A stretch of DNA of 64,000 nt from Eledone cirrhosa. Taxonomy: Eukaryota. Every line of letters starts with the position of its first letter. The stretch's first letter is position 1. The stretch spans positions 83,638,001 through 83,702,000 of the forward strand of contig OZ024744.1 in assembly GCA_964016885.1 (NCBI GenBank), in the 5' to 3' direction. Position numbers and translations under genes: made by a program. Shown piece after piece: positions 6,506-61,090 of this stretch. The notes below the pieces were generated by a model that saw nothing but the letters and a program-made list of their open reading frames with translations, ran no database searches and was not told the DNA's origin.

Positions 6506-6508
<3 letters not shown>
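6170..6508 (+). mobile_element. PLE family A pLTR with tail
   Basis: Family A sequence continuing past AAGTATAACAAT into ATTTGTTTCGACACACG...CCTCGCAAA. Confidence 0.8.
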
Positions 6509-6545
<37 letters not shown>

Positions 6546-6572
6546 ATGTATGAGCTCTTTGGTACAGTTAGG

Positions 6573-6988
6573 TATATTTGAAAAAAAGGAAAAGAATGAC
6601 TTCACTTGTAGTTCTAAATAATTTGATTTAATTTTATATTATAATATTGAGTTGGTAGAGCTAGTAAGTGATTTGTTAACTTCAGCGGGAAGAATTTTAA
6701 AGATTCCTGGTTAACTTTCTAGGAGAACGTTCTCGCATTCGTCCGTAGATGGCGGTGGCGAATGTCAAACTGAGGTTTTACAATCAGTTTGACACTCAGT
6801 TTGACAATCGCCACCGCCATCGACGAATGCGAGAAAGTTCTCCAAGAAAGTTAACCAGGAATTTTTACAATTCTTCCCACCGAAGTTAACAAAGAACTTA
6901 CTGGCTCTACCAACTCATAATATTATAATATTATAAAATTAAATCAAATTATTTAGAAATACAAGTGAAGTCCTTCTTTTCCTTTTTT

Positions 6989-6995
<7 letters not shown>
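6573..6995. repeat. ~200 bp-arm imperfect palindrome in (TA)n (probable inverted pLTR pair)
   Basis: Arms 6573-6773 and ~6795-6995 are reverse complements; short left tail. Confidence 0.8.
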
Positions 6996-7035
<40 letters not shown>

Positions 7036-7039
<4 letters not shown>

Positions 7040-7244
7040 GTGGTTAGACAACAGTTAGATCACCATACCGAGAACAATTGTTTCACCTTAGCGGATTCTC
7101 AGCTCCTAATTACGCCATTACGAGCTGAGGATCCGCTAAGGTGAAACAATTGTTCTCGGTATGGTGAACTAACTGTTGTGTAACCACTTCTACCTAACTC
7201 GTCCCATGGACTGAGTGCTCTACCACTACGGATATTACCTTCCA

Positions 7245-7245
<1 letters not shown>
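7036..7245. mobile_element. Small hairpin element (family E) with ~70 bp arms and right tail
   Basis: GAAGTGGTTAGACAACAGTTAG... / ...CTAACTGTTGTGTAACCACTTC, flanked by (TA)n. Confidence 0.8.
7121..7158 (+). ncRNA. Minimal type I hammerhead ribozyme
   Basis: CGAG-CTGAGGA-TCCGCTAAGGT-GAAACAATTGTT-CTCG; stem I CGAG/CTCG, palindromic stem III ACAATTGT. Confidence 0.7.
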
Positions 7246-7317
<72 letters not shown>

Positions 7318-7344
7318 AGTGTGTGTTTGTGTTTGTGTGTGTAT

Positions 7345-9237
7345 ATAGCAGCGAGAAAGACGCTAATTAGCTTCTTCGAAGATAAATTATGGGAGAGGAG
7401 GGACAGACTCTACAGTTTTGACATTACTATGTGGTCGAGCGATGTACTTTTTACCTTCTGTTCCCTAAACCCCAGTCAGCTGGAGCGTATGAGGAAGCGC
7501 ATATCGCATTTTTTTAAGCAACACGGCTTATCCGTGATGATAGGTCCTAGCACTAAGACCATGAATTTCCTGGATGTTACCCTGGAAATGAATACGGGCT
7601 TACACCGACCTTATCACAGGTCCAATGAGAACCTGCAATATGTGAACAGGCAATCGAACCACCCCAAGTTCGTCATAGAAGCAATAGTTAAAGGGGTATC
7701 CAAACGCGTATCCACCCTGTGGCCAACGCTGAGGTGTTCAACCTGCACGCTGACTATAATAATGAGGCACTGCGCAGAACCGGTTACACAGAAACCATAG
7801 TGTATACCACGGACAGGGAAATGTCTAGCGCCGAGGCATGCGGATACGACAATAGCAGTAGTACATCCATAGGTAGACGGAACGACCCGGAACTAGCTTC
7901 CAGGAACACGAGTAGCAGCATAGATCATCACAATGACACAAGACCGACAATAAGACAGACGAAAACACACACGGATTCCAGACCACCCAGTACACGTAGA
8001 CAGAAGCCCGACACGCGCACCACATGCGTCGCGGAAACTAGAACTAGAGACAGAGTAAAGACTAGTACGGCCGTGGAACCCGGTAGAGGAAACACCGGGA
8101 TCAGTAGCAAGGATATAGCCCCGACAACAGCACCGCATAGCATTAACGAGACTAACAGTAGAGCCGACAATACAAAACGCAATACGTCAGTAGCGAACGA
8201 CGTAACCCCAACGCCCACAGTAAACATATAGATAGAGGCAACATAGGGGACGAAATAACGGGCGGGCAAAAACCCGAGACGGGTACCTGACCCAACACAC
8301 ATTCACGTTACTACACACACACGAAGGAACAAGACAAGGTCTAAGGACGTTACATGGTTTAACGCGCCGTATTCTAAGCATGAATGCAGCAATGTACCAG
8401 GCCTCTTCTTCCGAGCGTTGGACGAGTGCTTCCCGCCGTCGAACAGATACCACAAGATTTTCAACCGCCACACAGTGAAGTTCTCCTCCACCACACCTAA
8501 CATGGCAGATTACATGGCCAAAACCAACGCGGCGAAGATGGGAAACCTCGACCGTCAACCGCGGCGGCCGAATGACCGTCCATCGGAGCCCGGAGGGCCC
8601 CTTGCAGACCGGTCTTCTAACTACAACCCGGCCTCTGGAGTGGCCACCATGCCCGCGGGAGACGATGCAATGCAACGCCGGGCGGAAATGAGTTTAGAGG
8701 GGAGACCACCGTGTCGGCAGAACAACACCCAGAGAATCGGGAGAGAGCCGTGTTAGATCAAGGGCCAGGCGTCCGAAATGAACATATAACGACAGAACGT
8801 GCAAGTGCAGAGCGTGAACACAGTGCCCTCTGCAGGGAAGATGCCCAACGAAGGGCCTGGTATATAAATGTGTGGTTAGCACACACAATATAAAGCGCAC
8901 CTACATCGGCGCAACATCCACGACTTTTAAATCACGGATGTATAACCACAAAAGCTCTTTCAAGGATCGGAGCAAGAGGCACTCTACTAGGCTGGCGGAC
9001 CTGGTGTGAGACTTGGAAGACAAAGGCACCCCGTATGATCTCAACTGGAGTATCGTTCGGCACGCGAATGTATATTCGGATGGAAATAGAAAGTGTAGGC
9101 TATGCCTATCCGAGGCCATGGAGATAGTCAGAATGAAGGATGATGCGGTCAACCTGAAATCGGAAATATTCATGACCTGCAGACACCAGAGAAGGTGCAC
9201 ACTGTCCGTATTTAATCCACCGGGAAGTCCAAGTTAA
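7345..9237 (+). pseudogene. Degenerate Penelope-like RT-GIY-YIG ORF (5'-truncated, frameshifts/stops); 3' UTR extends to ~9880
   Basis: ARKTLI, MNFLDVTL, YVNRQSNHP, YNNEALRRTGY, VTWFNAPY, HKIFNRHTVK, CKCR-x4-CPLQGRC, LVYKC..YIGATSTTFKSRMYNHKSSF, KCRLCLSE..NLKSEIFMTCRH; YxDD region deleted. Confidence 0.9.
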
Positions 9238-12284: not shown

Positions 12285-12921
12285 CCCCACCAACACCCCA
12301 CTCTCCAGAGCGTGAAATTAATAAACATTCGTTGTACTGCCTCTCTGTTTTGTCCCTGTTCAAATTTTTCCATTATATATATATATATATATACATATAT
12401 ATATGGAATAACCACAATCACTCTTTTTAAATACATATGCTATTATTAAAATATATATATAGATATTTATATATTATTATAATAAGTAGAAACAATTATA
12501 ATAAGATGTTTCTTTATTAGCCACAGGCTAATAATTATTATAAGATAAATACTTACAAACATAATCTCCATATAAATATATACATAATATAGACAAATGT
12601 CTGAATATATTACCCCCAAATTAACGTTATAAGTGGTCTTCCTTTTCCTTTTCCTTTTCCTTTTCCTTTTTCTTTTCCTTCTTCTTATTTTTCCTTCTTC
12701 TTTCTTTCTTCTTTCTTTCTCTCTTATTATTATATATCTAAACTTTCCATAGCGTTTAAAATAACGGTTTTTCAATAATGTAACTCAACCTTATTTACAT
12801 ATTCATTTGCACATTCATCCATAAGTTTGAAATATCCGTCCTTTAACCTCACTACCCGAGAAAATTCAACTGATAAGGTATGATTTCCTTGTCTATGTCG
12901 AAATGTATAAAACACTCTTTG

Positions 12922-12980
12922 TATTTTATCTGATGAAAGCGTACCAAAGTTTTTGGTACCCTTGAAATATATATAATAGA
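12922..12980 (+). ncRNA. Minimal hammerhead ribozyme (family C 5' pLTR)
   Basis: CTGATGA 12930-12936, stem II AAGCGTACCA/TGGTACCCTT, GAAA 12964-12967. Confidence 0.75.
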
Positions 12981-13176
12981 ATAAATATGGTTTTATATTT
13001 ATAAAAGTTTCCATTTATTTAATATCATTGAATATTTACTCCAGAAAACTGTCGAGTGCTCTGAATCAGTTATAAAGATTTATATTTGTTTTATTGCCAA
13101 CAAATTAAATACCTCTTCTACTTATAAATAACTCCTTTAATGTTGAGCACTTTAAATTATAACTGATTGATAAATA

Positions 13177-15055
13177 ATGGAATTCTTTAGGATTTCTTCC
13201 TCTCTAAAAGAACCTAAGAATAAGGAATATCTAACACAACTCATTGTGAAATTTGACTCCTTTATACGAAGACTTAGATGGCGTGCCTTCCATTTCGATA
13301 AAAAATCAGATGAACTTAAAAAATCAGATGAAAAAATAAATAAATCCAATTACAACTTTGATCTTATCTTCAAATCTAACAACAAACTATTAACTGAATT
13401 TGAAATGATGTAATATCTATTATACCAAACATCAAAATCAAGAAAAACCAATTTGTTGGTCAGAAATACATTAAAGGCCTCAAGAATAATATAGACAATC
13501 TTGAAAAAACTGAGAAGATCCTTGTAAAATCTGATAAAACTAATAATCTATATGGAATGCAAAAGGACGAATATAATAACCTCATATTGAAAGAACTTAG
13601 AAAAACTACAAAATAACAACAAATGAAGATCTTTCAACGTTAAATAGAGAAGCTTCTGAAATAATTCATAAATTTGGCATCCAAAATAGGACTGTACCCT
13701 TTATACCTAGAAGACCGAAAATTAACCTGAAAGACCACAAAGAAACTTTGAAATAGAACTACCAGTCAGATTTATAGCATCATCTAAATCAGACTTAGGC
13801 ATAATTAGTAAACATATATTAGATAGAATCATACCGCAACTTAAAGAAAAACCACACCTGAAACTATGGAATGGTACTAATGAAGTTATAGATTGGTTCA
13901 ATAACATAAAATTTAAACATAACAAAAAATTCATTCAAATGGATATTGCAAATTACTACTCTTCTATTACTCCTAGTTAACTTAATATGGCTCTTATCTA
14001 TGCATCTAAACATACAGACCTATCTAGTGATGAAATGCATATAATTCTAACTGCACGGAAAACATTAATAGAATTCAACAATCATCTCTGGACAAGAGCC
14101 GATAGAAAAAATAATTTTGGATCATCTGACTCGGCGCAAATAACGGATCTTGTGGGCTTATTTATTAATAATACACTGCATAGAAAAATGCCAGAGATGA
14201 CCGGTGGTTTATATCGTGATGATATGCTACTTTTAATTGAAAACAATAGAAATTGTGAAATTAATAGGAAAAGAAAATCCATAATACAATTCTTCAATAA
14301 TTATAACCTTAAGTTAGAAATAGAGAATAACTATAAAATCGTTAACTTTTCAAACGTAACATTAAACCTTAGCACAGGGCTCTACTATCCATTCCATAAA
14401 ATTAATGAGAATCTAAATTACGTAAGTTTTAACTCTAATCATCCTAGATCTATTAAGAACACTATTGTCAATAGTGTCCAGCAACGAATTTCACGCATCT
14501 CTGCTCATAAAAATATTTTTGATGATAAGGCTGAATATTATAATGAAGCTTTAAATAGAGCAGGGTATTAGAATAAAATTAAATACATTGACAACAATAA
14601 CATGGCAAATCTCCCTACTATTAATTATAATAAGAATAAACAATTTAACTTAAACTCTAAAACCAGCAAAAGAACTAGAACTAGAAATATTATTTGGACC
14701 GCGCCCCCATTCTCATTAAGCGTTAAAACATCTTTAGCAAAGCTATTATTTAAAGCACTAGACAAATGTTTTCCTAAAGCCCACAGATACCACTCAATCT
14801 TTAACAGACATACTATGAAAACTATCCTACTCTACTACTATGAACATAGCACAAAATATAAATAGAATTAATAATAGAAACTTAAATTTAAACCCTAACC
14901 AAAATAACCATAATAACAATAATAATATTTCTAGCAATATCCAACCTAATAGTACCGTTCCGAGCAACAACAACTCCGTAAAATGTAACTGTAGAATCAA
15001 ATCAAATTGCCCTCTACAAAATAAGTGTTTCGATAAAATTATAGTTTATAAGTAT
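13177..15055 (+). pseudogene. PLE reverse transcriptase, disrupted; endonuclease deleted after the CxCx5C linker
   Basis: FIRRLRWRAFHF, LVKSDKTNNLY, LKDHK, MDIANYYSSI, GSSDSAQITDLVG, GLYRDD, SNHP, IIWTAPPFS, CNCRIKSNCPLQNKC..IVYK. Confidence 0.9.
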
Positions 15056-15109
15056 ATATATAGTTTATAAATATATATATAGTTTATTAAAATATATATA
15101 TATAGATAG

Positions 15110-15208
15110 GAATATTTTCGAAACAGCGAGTGGGTTTGAAATTATTAGAAATGTAAGCTATCGCCGTATTTTCACTAAAGAAATACGGCGATAGCTTACA
15201 TTTCTAAT
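15110..15208. mobile_element. Tiny hairpin insertion related to the tRNA-bearing element at 60551-61048
   Basis: AATATTTTCGAAACAGCGAG..TGTAAGCTATCGCCGTATTT followed by its own reverse complement. Confidence 0.75.
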
Positions 15209-15595
15209 ATATATAGATATTTATATATTATTATAAGATAAATACTTACAAACATAATTCTCCATATACATAATGTAGACAAATGTCTGAATATATTTCC
15301 TCCAAATTAACGTTATAAGTGGTCTTCCTTTTTCTTTTCCTTTTCCTTTTCCATCTTCTTATATTTCCTTCTTTTTTCTTTCTTCTTTCTTTCTCTCTTA
15401 TTATTATATATCTAAACTTTCCATAGCGCTTAAAATAACGGTTTTTCAATAATGTAACTCAACCTTATTTACATATTCATTTGCACATTCATCCATAAGT
15501 TTGAAATATCCGTCCTTTAACCTCACTACCCGAGAAAATTCAACTGATAAGGTATGATTTCCTTGTCTATGTCAAAATATATAAAACACGCTTTG

Positions 15596-15657
15596 TATTT
15601 TATCTGATGAAAGCGTACCAAAGTTTTTGGGGTACGCTTGAAATATATAATAGAATA
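15596..15657 (+). ncRNA. Minimal type I hammerhead ribozyme (family C 3' pLTR)
   Basis: TATTTTAT-CTGATGA-AAGCGTACC..GGTACGCTT-GAAATATATA-ATAGAATA: 8 bp stem I, perfect 9 bp stem II. Confidence 0.8.
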
Positions 15658-15729
15658 AATATGGTTTTATAAATATAGTTTCCATTTATTGAATATTGTT
15701 GTATCTATATATATGTATATATATCTATT

Positions 15730-17192: not shown

Positions 17193-17255
<63 letters not shown>

Positions 17256-17256
<1 letters not shown>

Positions 17257-17650
17257 CATAAAAACGATAAATCAGTGATGCATCTGGACTCAGTTTATTG
17301 CGTGTTACAATTGTTTCGCCGGCAGGTAGCTCGAGACATGATCACTGTATGGATCTAGCTGATTCTATGGCTGCAGGTTCCTTCGGACACGAGCAAATCG
17401 TCCGGAGAAAATTTCCTCCGAACGAATTGCCCGTGTCCGAAGGAACCTGCAGCCGTAGAATCAGCCAGATCCATACAGTATTCATGTCTCGAGTTACCTG
17501 CCGGCGAAACAATTGTAGCATGCAATAAACTGACTCCAGATGCATCACCTATTTTTCGTTTTTATACTATCCACACTCTGCTCTGTATGAATATTGAGTG
17601 CTAATTTTGGCATACCGCCTATGGAAGCACCATAGCTACCATTATACACA
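17256..17650. mobile_element. Family F hairpin (arms ~150 bp, centre ~17411) with right tail
   Basis: Arms are reverse complements; (TA)n flanks. Confidence 0.8.
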
Positions 17651-17929: not shown

Positions 17930-18706
17930 TTATATATGTGCGTGTGTGGGGTCTTCGCGTATATATGTGTATGTATATTTTCCCAAAATTGGTTTACTGA
18001 AAATAGACGTGTTTTTCTGAAAATAAATTTCCGGTTCTCCCGCTTCTCACTCTTTATCTTTCAAATTCTTCTATTATTTTTAATTCTATCTTCAGATGAA
18101 GGATTAGCGTCAGAAACGTTATAACTCTTATATCAAGCGTTACACCAATATATAACATTATTGTAATGTATTATTTGCTTTGTTGTTTTCCGTTTACTTT
18201 TAGCATGCGTATATATGCATATCTGTTAGACACGCAGTGACTAACAACAGAATGTTTTAAGTCTGACATACATGCGTAGCTTGTGAATAAACATTTCAAG
18301 GGTTATCGCTGGCCGTGGTGATGCCTCCCAAATATCTTTTGTAAAGTATCGTCTTATTGGCTAATTTCATCGTCTTAATGGCTAATCAACCAACGAGAGT
18401 AATTGTTGCTCAAAAGCATCCGCCACTTTGTTTCCACGTTTATTTATCGTTTCGCTTTCGTCGTTTTATCATCAAAATATTTTTCTCGTTTTGGTAAGTT
18501 ATATTGTTAATTTATATATTATTTTTTAAATTTATATTAACTATTAAAATCTGAAAATATTTTTCATACATCTTACAATAATATTTATAAGATCATTTAT
18601 AAAATAACAATTATATAATCTAATTATATTACAACGATAATTTATTATTAATATATATCATGTTTAACTAGAGTTATTACAAGCGTTGCCTTAAAAAAAT
18701 ATTAAA

Positions 18707-19137
18707 CTAGACCTGAAAAATGCGCAAGCACAAAAGAGCCACAGAATGTTATAATATACCTTCAAAAGTGTGGGACTAAAATTGTTGCTAAAAAATATTG
18801 TAATCATTATCTATCGTACACTCTGTGGCATCCTTTCCATAACGAACTCAAGACGACACGATCATTATTTAAATGAATTTATAATATAGAATTCGGTTTA
18901 AATACATTTTGTATTAATCATTACTAAACATCTAATATGAGATATTGAACATTAGCTTAAATAATTATCGTGTCGAATTGAGTTCGTTATGAGTCTCTTT
19001 TTTATAAAAGGATGCCACAGAGTGTACGATAGATAATGATTACAATATTTTTGAGCAACAACTCTAGTCCCACACTTTTGAAGGTTTATTATAACATTCT
19101 GTGGCTCTTTTGAGCTTGCGTATTTTTCAGGTCTAGT
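18707..19137. repeat. Inverted repeat pair (18707-18872 / 18957-19137)
   Basis: ACTAGACCTGAAAAAT...CGACACGAT vs ATCGTGTCG...ATTTTTCAGGTCTAGT. Confidence 0.8.
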
Positions 19138-19764
19138 ATATATATGGTTAACAACATCCTAAACATCAATAACACAAAGGAATATATTAACTGTAATAGC
19201 AAGAACATGGTATTTTTAAACCTAAAGATTAATCCTAAATGTATTTTCATACCACTTTAATATTGACTTTGAAAATTCAATTTTTAATTTTAGGTTCATA
19301 TGAGCAATATCTCAAATAGAAACTAAATCAATAGTAATTCGCTATAATATTTTTTTTATTACACTTTACAACACTTAGTACTGTAAACCATCACGCATTT
19401 ACATTTTTCTTCCTGTTTCTACTTGTTTATTTGTTGCTCTTATATTATTTACTTTCAGTCATAAAATATATTTCTTGCTTGATATCTCTTTTTTTAATTT
19501 TTACTTCCCGTCATTGCTTTATTTTCATAATTTCTCGAAATCATTTACTTCTCTATCCTCTACTTCCTAAATATTTCCACTATAATTTTCTCAATCTTAC
19601 TCTTTACAATTGACTCTGAATATCGTTTCGTCTTTATCCTTTATCCTATTTCTGACTTTTCCCTATACTTTTAACACATTTTCCCCCATTTTCTCCTCCT
19701 TTCTGTCGTCCTCGAATCATACACACACACAAACACACACACATATATATATATGTAAAAATAA

Positions 19765-20798: not shown

Positions 20799-21394
<596 letters not shown>

Positions 21395-21438
21395 GTATAT
21401 ATGTATATATATATATATGTATATATGTATATATATAT

Positions 21439-23832
21439 AGTTTTGCGAGGTTTTTTATATGAAATCGTGTGTCGAAACAGATATTGTTATATTTGGGGAG
21501 GGTCATATTTGCGTAATATTGCCAGAATTAATAACAGAACACACTCACTGTTTGGTTGGTTTTCGCTTCTCGCTGTCTTTTATATATATATATCTGCGAT
21601 CTAACTTACTCGGTCCTCAATGTTGCCATTGACTGACCGGCGGTCAAAAATAATACAGATACAATATAGACAAACACATATATATATAGTTTACATAAAT
21701 CTTTCGTTGCACATCTGCAACATCGTCAGTGGTGTTATATTCATTGTTCCTCCTGTTGTGTTGTATGTCTACGCCATTTTTTTTTTTTTTGTTCAGTCTG
21801 TCTATATATTTATTTATTTATTTGCTTGTTTGTTTATCTTATTTTATTTTGTCTTCTTTGCGCATGCGTTTGCGTGTGTGTATAGTGTTATGTGTGATGT
21901 GTGACTAGTGTGTATAGTGTTGTGTCTGCTGGGTGACTAGTGTGTGTTTATGTGCTTGTGTATGTATTTATTTATCTTATTTTATTTAATTTAATTTACT
22001 TATTTATTTATACTTCTCTTAGGTCAGTGTTGTTTGTTTGGGTGTTGTTGTTGTTCCACTCATTCTTTCTGTTTAGCTTTGGTCTTCTAATTTCTATTTC
22101 ACTGGCCTCTCTGATTTGCCTATCTGCTGGGTCATTCCTATGTTTAGATATTATTCTAATTTCTATGTTGTCTATGTTACCGTCATGATGTTGTCTAGCA
22201 TGTTCGTATAGTACTGACCCGTTTTTTCGTCCTTTTAGTTCCCCCCAGTGTTGGTCTATCCTTTCACCTATGCTACGAGCTGTCTCACCTATGTATGTTG
22301 TTGTCGTGTTTCTGCAAGTACCCTCTGTACATCTTATGCTATAGACTACGTTTCTAGTTTTACAGTTTATCCGGGGGTTCACCTTACATATGATACATTT
22401 CCTATTGGTACAGTGGGTTTTCTTAAAAGGGTAGGTTTTGCTGATCAGGGATTTTATGGTGGTTCCTGGCTTTTCTACCACCTTTATTTTTAAGTGGGTC
22501 TTTCTCAGGGCCTTTCTACACTGGTTAGCTAATTTCCCTCCAGGGGTGGCGTCCACAAACATGACACTCTGATATCTCTGGTTGTCGTACCATGATGTGG
22601 CCTTCCCTATCTTATGTCTAGCCCTATCTAAGCTATTCCATGATTTGCTCCTGTATAGTGGGCAAATTCCTTTCATGTCCAGTTCTATGAGGGTCTTATA
22701 CTTTTCCATGGCTCCTTCGTATACTCTGACTCTGTCTCTTTGGTTGTAGCCAGAGAACTGCATGCGGTTGATGAAGTGTTGGATGTGTCCTTCCATTTCT
22801 GTTGGGTCGCACATGCTGGACACATTCTTCATCACTCGTACCAAATCTGCGATCAGAATATTAAACTTAGCACTACTGGACATTGCTGAGTTTTTGAGTA
22901 TCAGGTATTTGGAGGCCATGGGTTTAGCATAGTGTGAGTGGAGAATTTGGGCTCTCTCGTCTATAGTGTTAATCCAGAGTTCTGTGTCTAATACAGGTAG
23001 TCTATTGTTAGGGTGTTTGGAAGGGAAGTCTATAGTTACAGTTATACTCTGGTGTATGGAATTAGCTATCTGCTGGATGCTTTCCATCGTGCTACGTTCT
23101 AAATCAAACTTGTTAGTGCTCTCTAGTGGGGGTGTTCTTATAACTATATTGATATCGTCTACATAACGAGAGTACATGATGAGGTCTATGGAGCTTTCAT
23201 TAAGGAGATCTTTAAGTCTCCTTTCCCACCATACCATGAAAAGGTTGGCAACATCGCCAGCTATGCTGACGCCGATGGATGCTCCCTCATTTTGGGTGTA
23301 GATTTTCTCATTGAACTTAAATATGTGGCCCTTTAGGGTAGTTTTGATACTAGCCCCTATTGCATGTGCGACCATTTTTCTTACCTGATCAGTGTTTTGG
23401 GGGGTCCGTATAGCTTTGGTCCACCCAATCCACCTTCCTATGGGAGTCTTTTTAGCCATTGAGGTTATGGTGGGGGGTCTACCTCTTATAGGTCTACTAG
23501 GGCAGAAACATCTAAGGTCATGGCTGTCACAAAAAAAAAAAAAATGGCGTAGACATACAACACAACAGGAGGAACAATGAATATAACACCACTGACGATG
23601 TTGCAGATGTGCAACGAAAGATTTATGTAAACTATATATATATGTGTTTGTCTATATTGTATCTGTATTATTTTTGACCGCCGGTCAGTCAATGGCAACA
23701 TTGAGGACCGAGTAAGTTAGATCGCAGATATATATATATAAAAGACAGCGAGAAGCGAAAACCAACCAAACAGTGAGTGTGTTCTGTTATTAATTCTGGC
23801 AATATTACGCAAATATGACCCTCCCCAAATAT

Positions 23833-30153: not shown

Positions 30154-30749
30154 GTAGTCATTACTGATAAAGAACAACTTCCATTGGGTAAAAAAGAAAG
30201 TGTACTCACTATTCACAGTATTATCGGATTTTTCATCCTCGAAACCAGTTAAAAACGAAAACAACTACGTAGTTTTACTCCTTTATAAAAACGATAACCT
30301 GGCAATATCATGTCAAACAAGCAACTACGCCATGTTTAAGTTCAGAAAAGATTTTTTAAGGGTCTTCAAATAATTCGATATTTAAAAAAAATCCAAATAC
30401 TGGAAATAACAGCTATTTCCGTATCTTTACGTGATCCGATCTCTATGCCAATTACGATTTCGTGTCAATATGATATATATATATATGGATGTGTATGTGT
30501 GTGTGTAGAAGATATGTATTATAGACAATAAACTATGAAACCACTAGTACTGAGGGTTTCTCGCTGAAACCGTAAATATATATATATATATAAGAAATAG
30601 GATTTCGCTTCAAGCACGAAATATTTATACATACAATATGTATAAATATTTCGTGAGGGCGTTATATAGCTACGGCTTCCTAAAACTGTATTTCTTTGGA
30701 GATACGAAATATTCATACACACATATATACATATATATATATATATATA

Positions 30750-31198
30750 TATTTACGATATTAAATAAATGGAAACTATATTTATAAAACCATATTTATT
30801 TCATTATATATATTTCAGGGATATCATATTAACAATATGCTATGCCTTCCTCAGACAAAATACAATATAAACAGTTTTATAGATAAATAGATTTGACATA
30901 TCTTACAACATCGACTTGTATTTGAAAAGTTGAATTGGCAGCCAATTCAACTTTTCAAATACAAGTCGATGTTGTACGGTATGTCAAATCTATTTATCTA
31001 TAAAACTGTTTATATTGTATTTTGTCTGAGGAAGGCATAGCATATTGTTAATATGATATCCCTGAAATATATATAATGAAATAAATATGGTTTTATAAAT
31101 ATAGTTTCCATTTATTTAATATCGTAAATATACTCCAAATACTTGTCGAGTGCTTTTATATCAGTTATAAATATTTACTAGTTCTAACCCAACAATTT
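30750..31198. mobile_element. Family C near-perfect palindrome (arms ~190 bp, centre 30940) with right tail
   Basis: 1-nt spacer GGC-A-GCC; hammerhead cores at 30813-30854(-) and 31026-31067(+). Confidence 0.88.
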
Positions 31199-54096: not shown

Positions 54097-54147
<51 letters not shown>

Positions 54148-54149
54148 AT

Positions 54150-54604
54150 AAATGCTCTGAAATAGCGATATATATGTGAATATAGACATAGAATATTCGA
54201 AAATATTCTGTATGTTTATAATAAACATTTTGAAGACCTAATCGCTGTTTATTATAAACATACAGAATATTTTCGAATATTCTATGTCTATATTCACATA
54301 TATATCGCTATTTCAGAGCATTTATTCCAATTTCTAATTTCTGCCGGACCGGCAACCGCTCTTTCAAACCAGTTCCTGTACACAGCTAAGTATTCTATAA
54401 GTCTCTAGCTGTGTCATTCTCGATAAAAGCACTGGATATGTAGTCCTGAAGATTTCTAACAAGAATGAAACGCGTAGATTACTTCCCTTGCTTTTATCGA
54501 GAATCTAATTGTAATACGTGACGTATTCTATTCTATAGCGATTAGGTCTTCAAAATGTTTATTATAAACATACAGAATATTTTCGAATATTCTATGTCTA
54601 TATT

Positions 54605-60420: not shown

Positions 60421-60550
60421 ACTGATGCAGAACGTATGGTTAGGGGGTAAAAAATAAATACAAATATATATATATACACACACACATACATATACACATA
60501 CATATATATATTAATATATATTATATACATATATTTATATATATTTATAT

Positions 60551-61048
60551 GTAAGAATATTTTCGAAACAGCGAGCGAGTTTGAAATTAAAAATGTAAGC
60601 TATCGCCGTATTTTGCTTAAAGAAATTAAAGAAAATTATTTAGCCCGATAGTGGGGTAAAGAACCCTCGGAGAAATGGAAAAAGATGAGTATTTACGTAC
60701 AGGGGAGTCGAACCCGCATCTTTAATTATCCAGACCACTGTGCTACCATTACACCAACACATCACCCGTCTTCTTCCATTCAAATTAGAAGCTATAATCT
60801 TAGCAACTGTAAATGTCAAGTAAGAATATTTTCGAAACAGCGAGCGAGTTTGAAATTATAAATGTAAGCTACCGCCGTATTTTGACTAAAGAAATTAAAG
60901 AAAATTATTTAGCCTGATAGTGGGGTTAAGAACCCTCGAAGAAATGTGTTAGTGTAATGGTAGCACAGTGGTCTGGATAACCAAAGATGTGGGTTCGACT
61001 CCCATGTATGTCAATACTCATCTTTTTCCATTTCTCCGAGGGTTCTTA
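60551..61048 (-). mobile_element. tRNA-containing element with 269 bp tandem unit and inverted 5' piece
   Basis: Direct repeat at 60551 and 60820; inversion 60945-61048; (TA)n flanks. Confidence 0.75.
60694..60763 (-). ncRNA. tRNA-like (SINE-type) sequence with A and B boxes; inverted copy 60945-61012(+)
   Basis: TGGTGTAATGGTAGCAC D-arm, TGGT-CTGGATA-ACCA anticodon arm, GGGTTCGACTCCC T-arm; acceptor stem weak. Confidence 0.7.

Positions 61049-61090
<42 letters not shown>

Follow-up and report, generated by a model that had tools for sequence, protein, structure and literature searches.

A 269-nt tRNA-bearing repeat of Eledone cirrhosa appears to be copied by the enzymes of Penelope-like elements (PLEs) into (TA)n tracts, from RNA that Pol III would start upstream of the tRNA, with methylation of A58 (m1A58) halting about half or more of the cDNAs. 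We put the probability of this whole reading at roughly 0.58; its parts are graded where they are discussed. In this model, Pol III would start at about G-3/G-4 from internal A and B boxes and read past a T5 run into the next tandem unit, and TRMT6/61A-type enzymes would methylate A58 of the unit RNA. A PLE protein would then nick both strands of a TA tract and start two cDNAs at two internal RNA sites, as an anole PLE does in vitro, each cDNA extending to m1A58, to the RNA 5' end or to a random drop-off. Microhomology, in many cases that of the nearest 4-nt palindrome, would join the two cDNA ends and leave two head-to-head arms. Where an arm exceeds one unit, its template would have held several units or been re-entered, and later local duplication would have lengthened some long arrays.

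The locus in the window

The window is a 64,000-nt stretch of contig OZ024744.1 (positions 83,638,001 to 83,702,000), and plain coordinates below refer to it. The locus begins with a full 269-nt unit (q1-269; 60551..60819, minus strand, which is the RNA sense). There follow a partial second unit (q1-127; 60820..60946, minus strand), a partial tandem or terminal redundancy 94% identical to the first, and an inverted arm running from q212 to q107 (60944..61049, plus strand; 93%), joined head to head with 3 nt of microhomology. A left (TA)n-rich target tract (60464..60550) and a right (TA)n target tract (61050..61088) flank the insertion. The tRNA lies on the minus strand of the unit, with tRNA nt 1 at q213, A58 at q158 and nt 73 at q143.

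ARAGORN and Rfam both call a tRNA-like cloverleaf at 60943..61013 on the plus strand (42.5 bits, E 1.2e-5). Its anticodon GGA (60975-60977, plus strand) is followed by U at position 37, and the cloverleaf is predicted to be non-decoding. By sequence it carries a Pol III A box (60950..60960, plus strand) and a B box that coincides with a T-loop containing the GUUCRA motif (60992..61002, plus strand; A58 at 60998). A T5 run (61023..61027, plus strand) lies 10 nt past the discriminator base, is kept in families A–D and pairs with the leader. The corresponding module of the first unit (q213-143; 60693..60763, minus strand; A58 at 60708) is more decayed and received no tRNA call from ARAGORN or Rfam. 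A purine-rich leader (60764..60781, minus strand) and a pyrimidine-rich trailer (60675..60692, minus strand) form the 5' and 3' strands of a predicted 17-bp stalk.

These alignments and tRNA calls agree with the initial annotation, which had described a 269-bp tandem unit with a tRNA-like cloverleaf and A/B boxes in (TA)n, its terminal redundancy (60820-60946 repeats the first 127 nt of the unit), and an inverted piece from about the tRNA 5' end, put at 60945; we place its start at 60944, tRNA nt +2. A hairpin of about 100 bp, reported at 15110-15208 in a TA tract of another element, is indeed a short two-armed copy of subfamily C (15107..15209; q2-76 plus inverted q63-38) with a long and a short end, in a TA tract within a broken Hydra-like PLE. 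The proposed tail stood in part: a PLE-type tail, bounded by the long end (q258-2) on one side and the short end (q34-47) on the other, corresponds to 60551..60585 (minus strand) and is found in the family and in the 15107 copy, whereas the inverted arm of the 60551 insertion has its right end at q107-109 (61047/9) instead of the usual q34-47.

Broken Hydra-like PLE copies lie at 12534-15704, with direct pLTRs and a hammerhead core, and at 7198-8756 (clade assigned by eye against the accessible part of the PMC8557442 supplement). Other fold-back insertions in the window (6507-7036, 7035-7192, 17253-17570, 18699-19145, 20878-21903, 30748-31132 and 54147-54326), most of them adjoining TA tracts, are probably PLE pLTR hairpins of other families.

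An abundant family with a constrained tRNA module

DNA searches of the 3.0-Gb genome returned 150 loci, 118 of them unique after duplicates were dropped; these are the top-scoring matches and not a random sample. They fall into subfamilies A (269 nt), B (260 nt, 85% identical to A) and C (271 nt). An older family D (261 nt), found via a stray match, is 65–69% identical to A–C with its layout unchanged. Units range from 260 to 272 nt across the family and are non-coding, with no ORF in the unit. Two copies of A–C in 60 evenly spaced 10-kb stretches give a rough estimate of about 10,000 copies (95% interval 1,200–36,000), and one exact 19-mer of the unit occurs 5,594 times genome-wide. The family is a real, abundant, non-coding, tRNA-bearing repeat.

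At C28:19.5-19.7 Mb the tRNA-unit motif forms a large same-strand satellite, and in a further subfamily (L436, L438, L450, L452, L454, L456) some bases of the acceptor and of the trailer are changed. An exact 14-nt match was seen between the leader/acceptor of subfamily A (q206-219) and the post-tRNA body of an abundant SINE of this genome (L166, L273 flank); D does not have it.

Between the A and B consensus sequences, 0 of 71 tRNA positions changed vs 27 of 198 elsewhere (p 3e-4). The D cloverleaf is changed on both sides at pairs 2-71, 5-68, 11-24 and 29-41 and broken at 4-69; its T arm is unchanged and its anticodon changed. Across 23 distinct natural copies, 88.6% of cells pair, compared with 84.8 ± 0.5 in shuffles and 37–56% in slid controls; this pairing reflects about two lineages, and pairs changed on both sides, at 9, do not exceed the shuffles (7.0; 77/500). 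By prediction, pairing of the leader with the T5-containing trailer lengthens the acceptor by about 17 bp and leaves 3 nt unpaired on the 3' side; this stalk is 87% paired, and changes in it are mostly one-sided. Three copies had fold z-scores from −2.3 to −3.9, and the decayed copy of the window scored −1.6. Judged from these comparisons, the tRNA module is constrained as an RNA. It differs from functional tRNA genes in its anticodon (GGA vs GGC between families), in U37 in A–C and in scores of 27–50 bits, compared with 60–75 for the top genome matches. None of 16 genome matches qualified as the parent tRNA, at most 47 of 71 nt being matched. The module is integral to the unit in every subfamily, not an independent insertion.

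Two other tRNA-like groups came up in the searches. A different dispersed repeat (L153, L155-L163) carries a tRNA of 53–72 bits with a variable anticodon and long shared flanks, and is neither TA-flanked nor tandem. A tandem tRNA-Thr gene cluster (L152, L154; C1:243.65-243.68 Mb) is interspersed with degenerate tRNA-like copies.

Insertion geometry is of the PLE type

Simple inversions account for 77 of the 118 unique loci, all in the '+-' and none in the '-+' orientation, so that tRNA-sense 3' ends point outward; 37 loci are single arms and 4 are complex structures, which were dropped. One inversion (L124) was also dropped because its breakpoints are identical to those of L122, leaving 76 for scoring. 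A long and a short outer end were found in 64 of these, with a tail of about 40 nt: the long end lies at q245-6 (mostly q258-2) and the short end at q26-60 (mostly q34-47). TA lies on both sides in 68/76. TSD-like repeats occur at only 5 of 113 loci, with no regular target-site duplication, and the unit has no poly-A or simple-repeat tail; with arms in tandem or inverted, the copies are not ordinary linear SINEs with TSDs. A canonical hammerhead core was found on neither strand of the four consensus units by a scan that detected two control PLEs, and an Rfam scan of 6 loci at E ≤ 10 returned no ribozyme family, in keeping with the earlier remark that no hammerhead is evident; one relaxed match fell on the antisense strand of B only.

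This layout is the one described for PLEs, whose insertions are tandem or inverted, with tails of 30–40 bp and (TA)n targets (PMC8557442; PMC3846280, accessible parts). The portion available of an in vitro study of the anole PLE attributes the tail to the distance between two internal RT start sites (PMC11167929). Autonomous PLEs of this genome likewise have long and short ends in TA, with hammerhead cores in those used as controls. Inversion geometry, tail and TA target, as scored across genomic copies, thus support the initial proposal of PLE-type mobilisation, and the unit is very probably moved by PLE-type enzymes.

It is highly unlikely that PLEs play no part, the unit being instead a LINE-mobilised SINE with twin-priming inversions or a DNA-based Helitron, foldback or satellite repeat. 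Such an origin would fit the large satellite that the unit forms on C28, and no PLE partner or common terminus was found among the loci compared. It would not account for two arms with fixed 3'-type outer ends about 40 nt apart, for a tRNA internal to a permuted tandem unit, for the lack of a poly-A or simple-repeat tail and the scarcity of TSD-like repeats, or for RNA-type stops at tRNA landmarks.

Arm ends pile up just 3' of A58

Arm ends were counted at 71 loci chosen by their 3' region only, full-length and tRNA-query loci being left out. They pile up in a first wall at q143-157, where 48 of 93 arms end vs 5.3 expected (per-event p 2e-12). The only ends in q158-188, those of L116 and L149, were scored at q173; they are q153 junctions and were not added to the 48. 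A held-out set of 18 loci has 21 arms, of which 18 end within q143-157 and reach no further than q156. The wall recurs in family D: at 29 loci chosen by the 3' region (L261 and L272 were dropped from these rows), 19 of 24 arms have their end in the interval from nt 73 to nt 58 (p 4e-7 on a conservative background); three of these ends are at nt 60 and two each at nt 59 and nt 58. Copies with a single arm end at the wall as well.

What stops the reverse transcriptase? Arm ends in the stalk region (q121-142) remain at background level; thus, a helix alone does not stop it. An RT blocked by m1A58 halts at nt 59. Most first-wall ends of A–C fall 4–9 nt short of that position, and trimming must therefore be assumed under an m1A58 stop. 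Exact 19-mers are found 5,594 times before the wall and 2,184 times after it, a comparison confounded by CpG, family D and the satellite. Variants at A58 number 54 of 2,238 genome-wide, compared with 24 at U55 and 59 at U60 (p 4e-5, with these two control sites only); 35 of the 59 U60 variants lie in one satellite, leaving 24 non-satellite. At 12 of 13 informative loci the A58 variant is arm-specific, the sister arm keeping A58, and no subfamily with an altered A58 emerged from 30 of the 54 variant loci. Among 143 read-through arms there was no A58 excess (3/143 changed vs a T-site mean of 3.2%). The GUUCRA T-loop is of the kind that TRMT6/61A recognises (PMC11508930, in part). From the position of the stops, m1A58 is quite probably the cause of the first wall.

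Symmetric junctions fall at CATG (10) and ACGT (4), both before the wall, and none at TCGA, in the T-loop just past A58. A PLE-mobilised Pol III unit could also be imagined with a purely structural wall, formed by the T-arm/elbow fold or a bound protein, together with palindrome-guided joining and no methylation. Most A–C junctions do lie on the CATG and ACGT palindromes, and the 143 read-through arms carry no excess of A58 mismatches, as this would predict. We nevertheless regard it as unlikely: the RT is not halted by the longer helix of stalk plus acceptor; the edge in D is sharp (nt 59-58) although two of the three palindromes are missing there; single-arm copies, too, end at the wall; and the genome as a whole holds an excess of A58 variants.

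If the A58 wall is indeed a methyl stop, a host tRNA-modifying enzyme would shape and limit the retrotransposition of a repeat, and a PLE RT would copy modified sense RNA in vivo from two start sites. Insertion junctions would then map RNA modifications in species without RNA data.

Probable RNA 5' ends near the front of the tRNA

A second wall lies at q206-217, where 14 of 38 arms end vs 1.9 expected (per-event p 3e-4). Altogether 23 ends fall at q206-219 (15 scored, 8 read by eye). Eight do not extend beyond +1, four reach -1, and the other 11 lie between -2 and -6. Six of the 23 run at least 3 nt past +1; slippage might account for two of those at -3. In family D, two copies have their end at +1 or +2. 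Because nearly half of the ends (11 of 23) lie at least 2 nt past +1, a Pol III start fits better than RNase P, which would leave ends at +1/-1; a Pol III start near G-3/G-4 is thus the likely cause of the second wall, as far as end positions can tell. An RNase Z end was rejected, there being no pile-up at q121-142, and inspection of the unit revealed no bulge-helix-bulge motif. The suggestion that Pol III or RNase P/Z defines the RNA ends therefore found support for the ends near the tRNA front, with Pol III favoured, and none for RNase Z.

A conserved T5 is expected to end Pol III transcripts. Since 24 of 38 arms pass the second wall despite the conserved T5, high read-through or template re-entry is needed, and templates must often include upstream units.

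A different source of RNA ends would sidestep the T5 problem. The unit would still be PLE-mobilised and A58 methylated, with every stalked cloverleaf of a longer transcript (Pol II or read-through) serving as an RNase P cutting site, as for MALAT1 mascRNA; the resulting monomers, perhaps ligated into circles, would replace the hammerhead one-for-one. The conserved stalk of purine leader and pyrimidine trailer, with 3 unpaired nt beside the acceptor, recalls MALAT1, in which lengthening of the acceptor stem, together with a bulge, favours cutting by RNase P (PMC8457004, accessible part). The two D copies ending at +1 or +2 fit such cuts, and so does the near-identity of successive passes within one insertion. 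The ends that run at least 2 nt (11 of 23) or at least 3 nt (6) past +1 do not, the bulge is on the 3' strand whereas that of MALAT1 lies 5' of the cut, and both A and B boxes are kept. Moreover, a rolling circle was rejected for a 10-unit array, in which period-2 variants point to local duplication. We consider RNase P an improbable source of the ends and retain the Pol III start.

Template source and a candidate partner PLE

What was the template of multi-unit arms? A heterogeneous linear template was rejected, since second-pass singletons number 78 vs 93 and 97 (32 loci, 3,609 sites). Near-identical passes would be expected alike from a homogeneous source array, from a circle and from a 1.3-unit RNA whose two tRNA copies allow strand transfer.

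A PLE protein match lies within the locus at 13 of 138 loci, and at 0 of 138 is the unit the pLTR of an ORF. No significant match to the unit was found in 60 PLE loci, comprising Neptune-like GIY-YIG matches and a young 1,217-aa family and sampling about five families. One family, PLE-X (L280-L309), is a candidate partner on sequence grounds: it has a hammerhead-like core, a 44-nt tail and an age similar to that of the unit, and shares with subfamily B a 14-nt motif and the last bases (z 2.3, p ~0.02 among 18 comparisons). Against D the comparison gave p 0.05-0.10, and against subfamily A no match. Six short unit motifs had no match in the accessible PMC8557442 (Craig 2021) supplement, where line breaks or cut cells may hide matches.

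One locus (L280; L247:8401-10000; C4:80329400-80331100) runs from q87-157, ending beside A58, via 34 unexplained bases to a 5'-truncated PLE-X. This single junction (n=1), possibly a two-template insertion, was not counted as evidence. Another apparent unit/PLE-X chimera, O304, proved to be a separate neighbouring insertion.

Relation to known elements

In its mode of action the unit resembles a non-LTR retrozyme or non-autonomous PLE, but the lack of a hammerhead sets it apart from retrozymes, and it is not a classical SINE either. Metazoan non-LTR retrozymes are tandem, non-coding units of about 170–400 nt proposed to be non-autonomous PLE derivatives (PMC7229834; bioRxiv 10.64898/2026.07.22.740005, accessible parts). 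Their small tandem units are of similar size to those here (260–272 nt) but are defined by a type I hammerhead per unit and circRNA. The tRNA mimic here lies about 107–180 nt from the short end, compared with 101–126 nt for the hammerhead in PLE-X.

The initial annotation knew of no well-described equivalent, which is overstated. A close precedent is schistosome Sm-alpha/Sj-alpha, tRNA-derived (Gln-TTG in S. mansoni), apparently Pol III-transcribed, tandem and hammerhead-bearing (PMC2770079, PMC6765202, in the portions available). Like our unit it is non-coding and of high copy number, an upstream unit driving the downstream one. Its hammerhead cuts multimers, whereas motif and Rfam scans gave none here, and the accessible descriptions mention no stalked cloverleaf in intact form, no stops at A58, and no tails or inversions of the PLE kind. 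Hammerhead-less, non-autonomous elements also exist: Chlamys PLEs (MRC1), like Naiad, have no canonical hammerhead and combine pLTR tandems and inversions with a 30–40 bp tail and microsatellite targets (PMC8557442, in part), all features of the present unit. MRC1-type elements differ in that an autonomous partner has their 3' sequence too, and the available part of their description mentions no tRNA module.

At the level of the module, the likeness is to MALAT1 mascRNA: its cloverleaf is non-decoding as well, and an A-rich leader and a U-rich trailer lengthen its acceptor stem. In the text available (PMC8457004) it is a processing signal of a single-copy lncRNA, and its extension is 7 bp long, with a bulged A on the 5' side; the module here has about 17 bp, a 3' bulge and Pol III boxes, and is mobile. 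Among octopus tRNA-derived SINEs is OK. SINEs are single linear copies with a 5' tRNA head, a LINE-type or simple-repeat tail and TSDs, a description that sets the unit apart. Common to it and classical tRNA-derived SINEs (octopus OR, Ceph-SINEs; PMC4758252, accessible part) are A/B boxes, short length, lack of coding capacity and high copy number. The literature searched yielded no ribozyme-free tRNA-mimic PLE passenger; the family may already be named in Repbase, Dfam or SINEBase or in the supplement of PMC13282606, whose available text reports 893 unclassified recently active SINE families.

A short passenger could use Penelope enzymes without a ribozyme, a point that is open for the hammerhead-less Naiad and Chlamys elements. 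Tentatively, long-lived Penelope passengers might have swapped their hammerhead for a host-processed tRNA mimic, the stalked cloverleaf setting RNA ends so that tandem units are regenerated and thousands of junctions forming a fossil record of m1A58 and of the RNA 5' end that genomic DNA suffices to read; the ends may be set via terminal tRNA redundancy that allows strand transfer, or by RNase P and ligation. A 270-nt RNA with two fixed starts and built-in stops would make a compact substrate for PLE assays in vitro.

The window also contains, at 22008-23651 (minus strand), a member of a very young PLE family (L217-L246) with at least 150 copies that are 100% identical over 200 aa. Its ORFs reach about 1,217 aa, its tandem copies are spaced at about 4.1 kb, and it combines a hammerhead core with a tail of about 57 nt.
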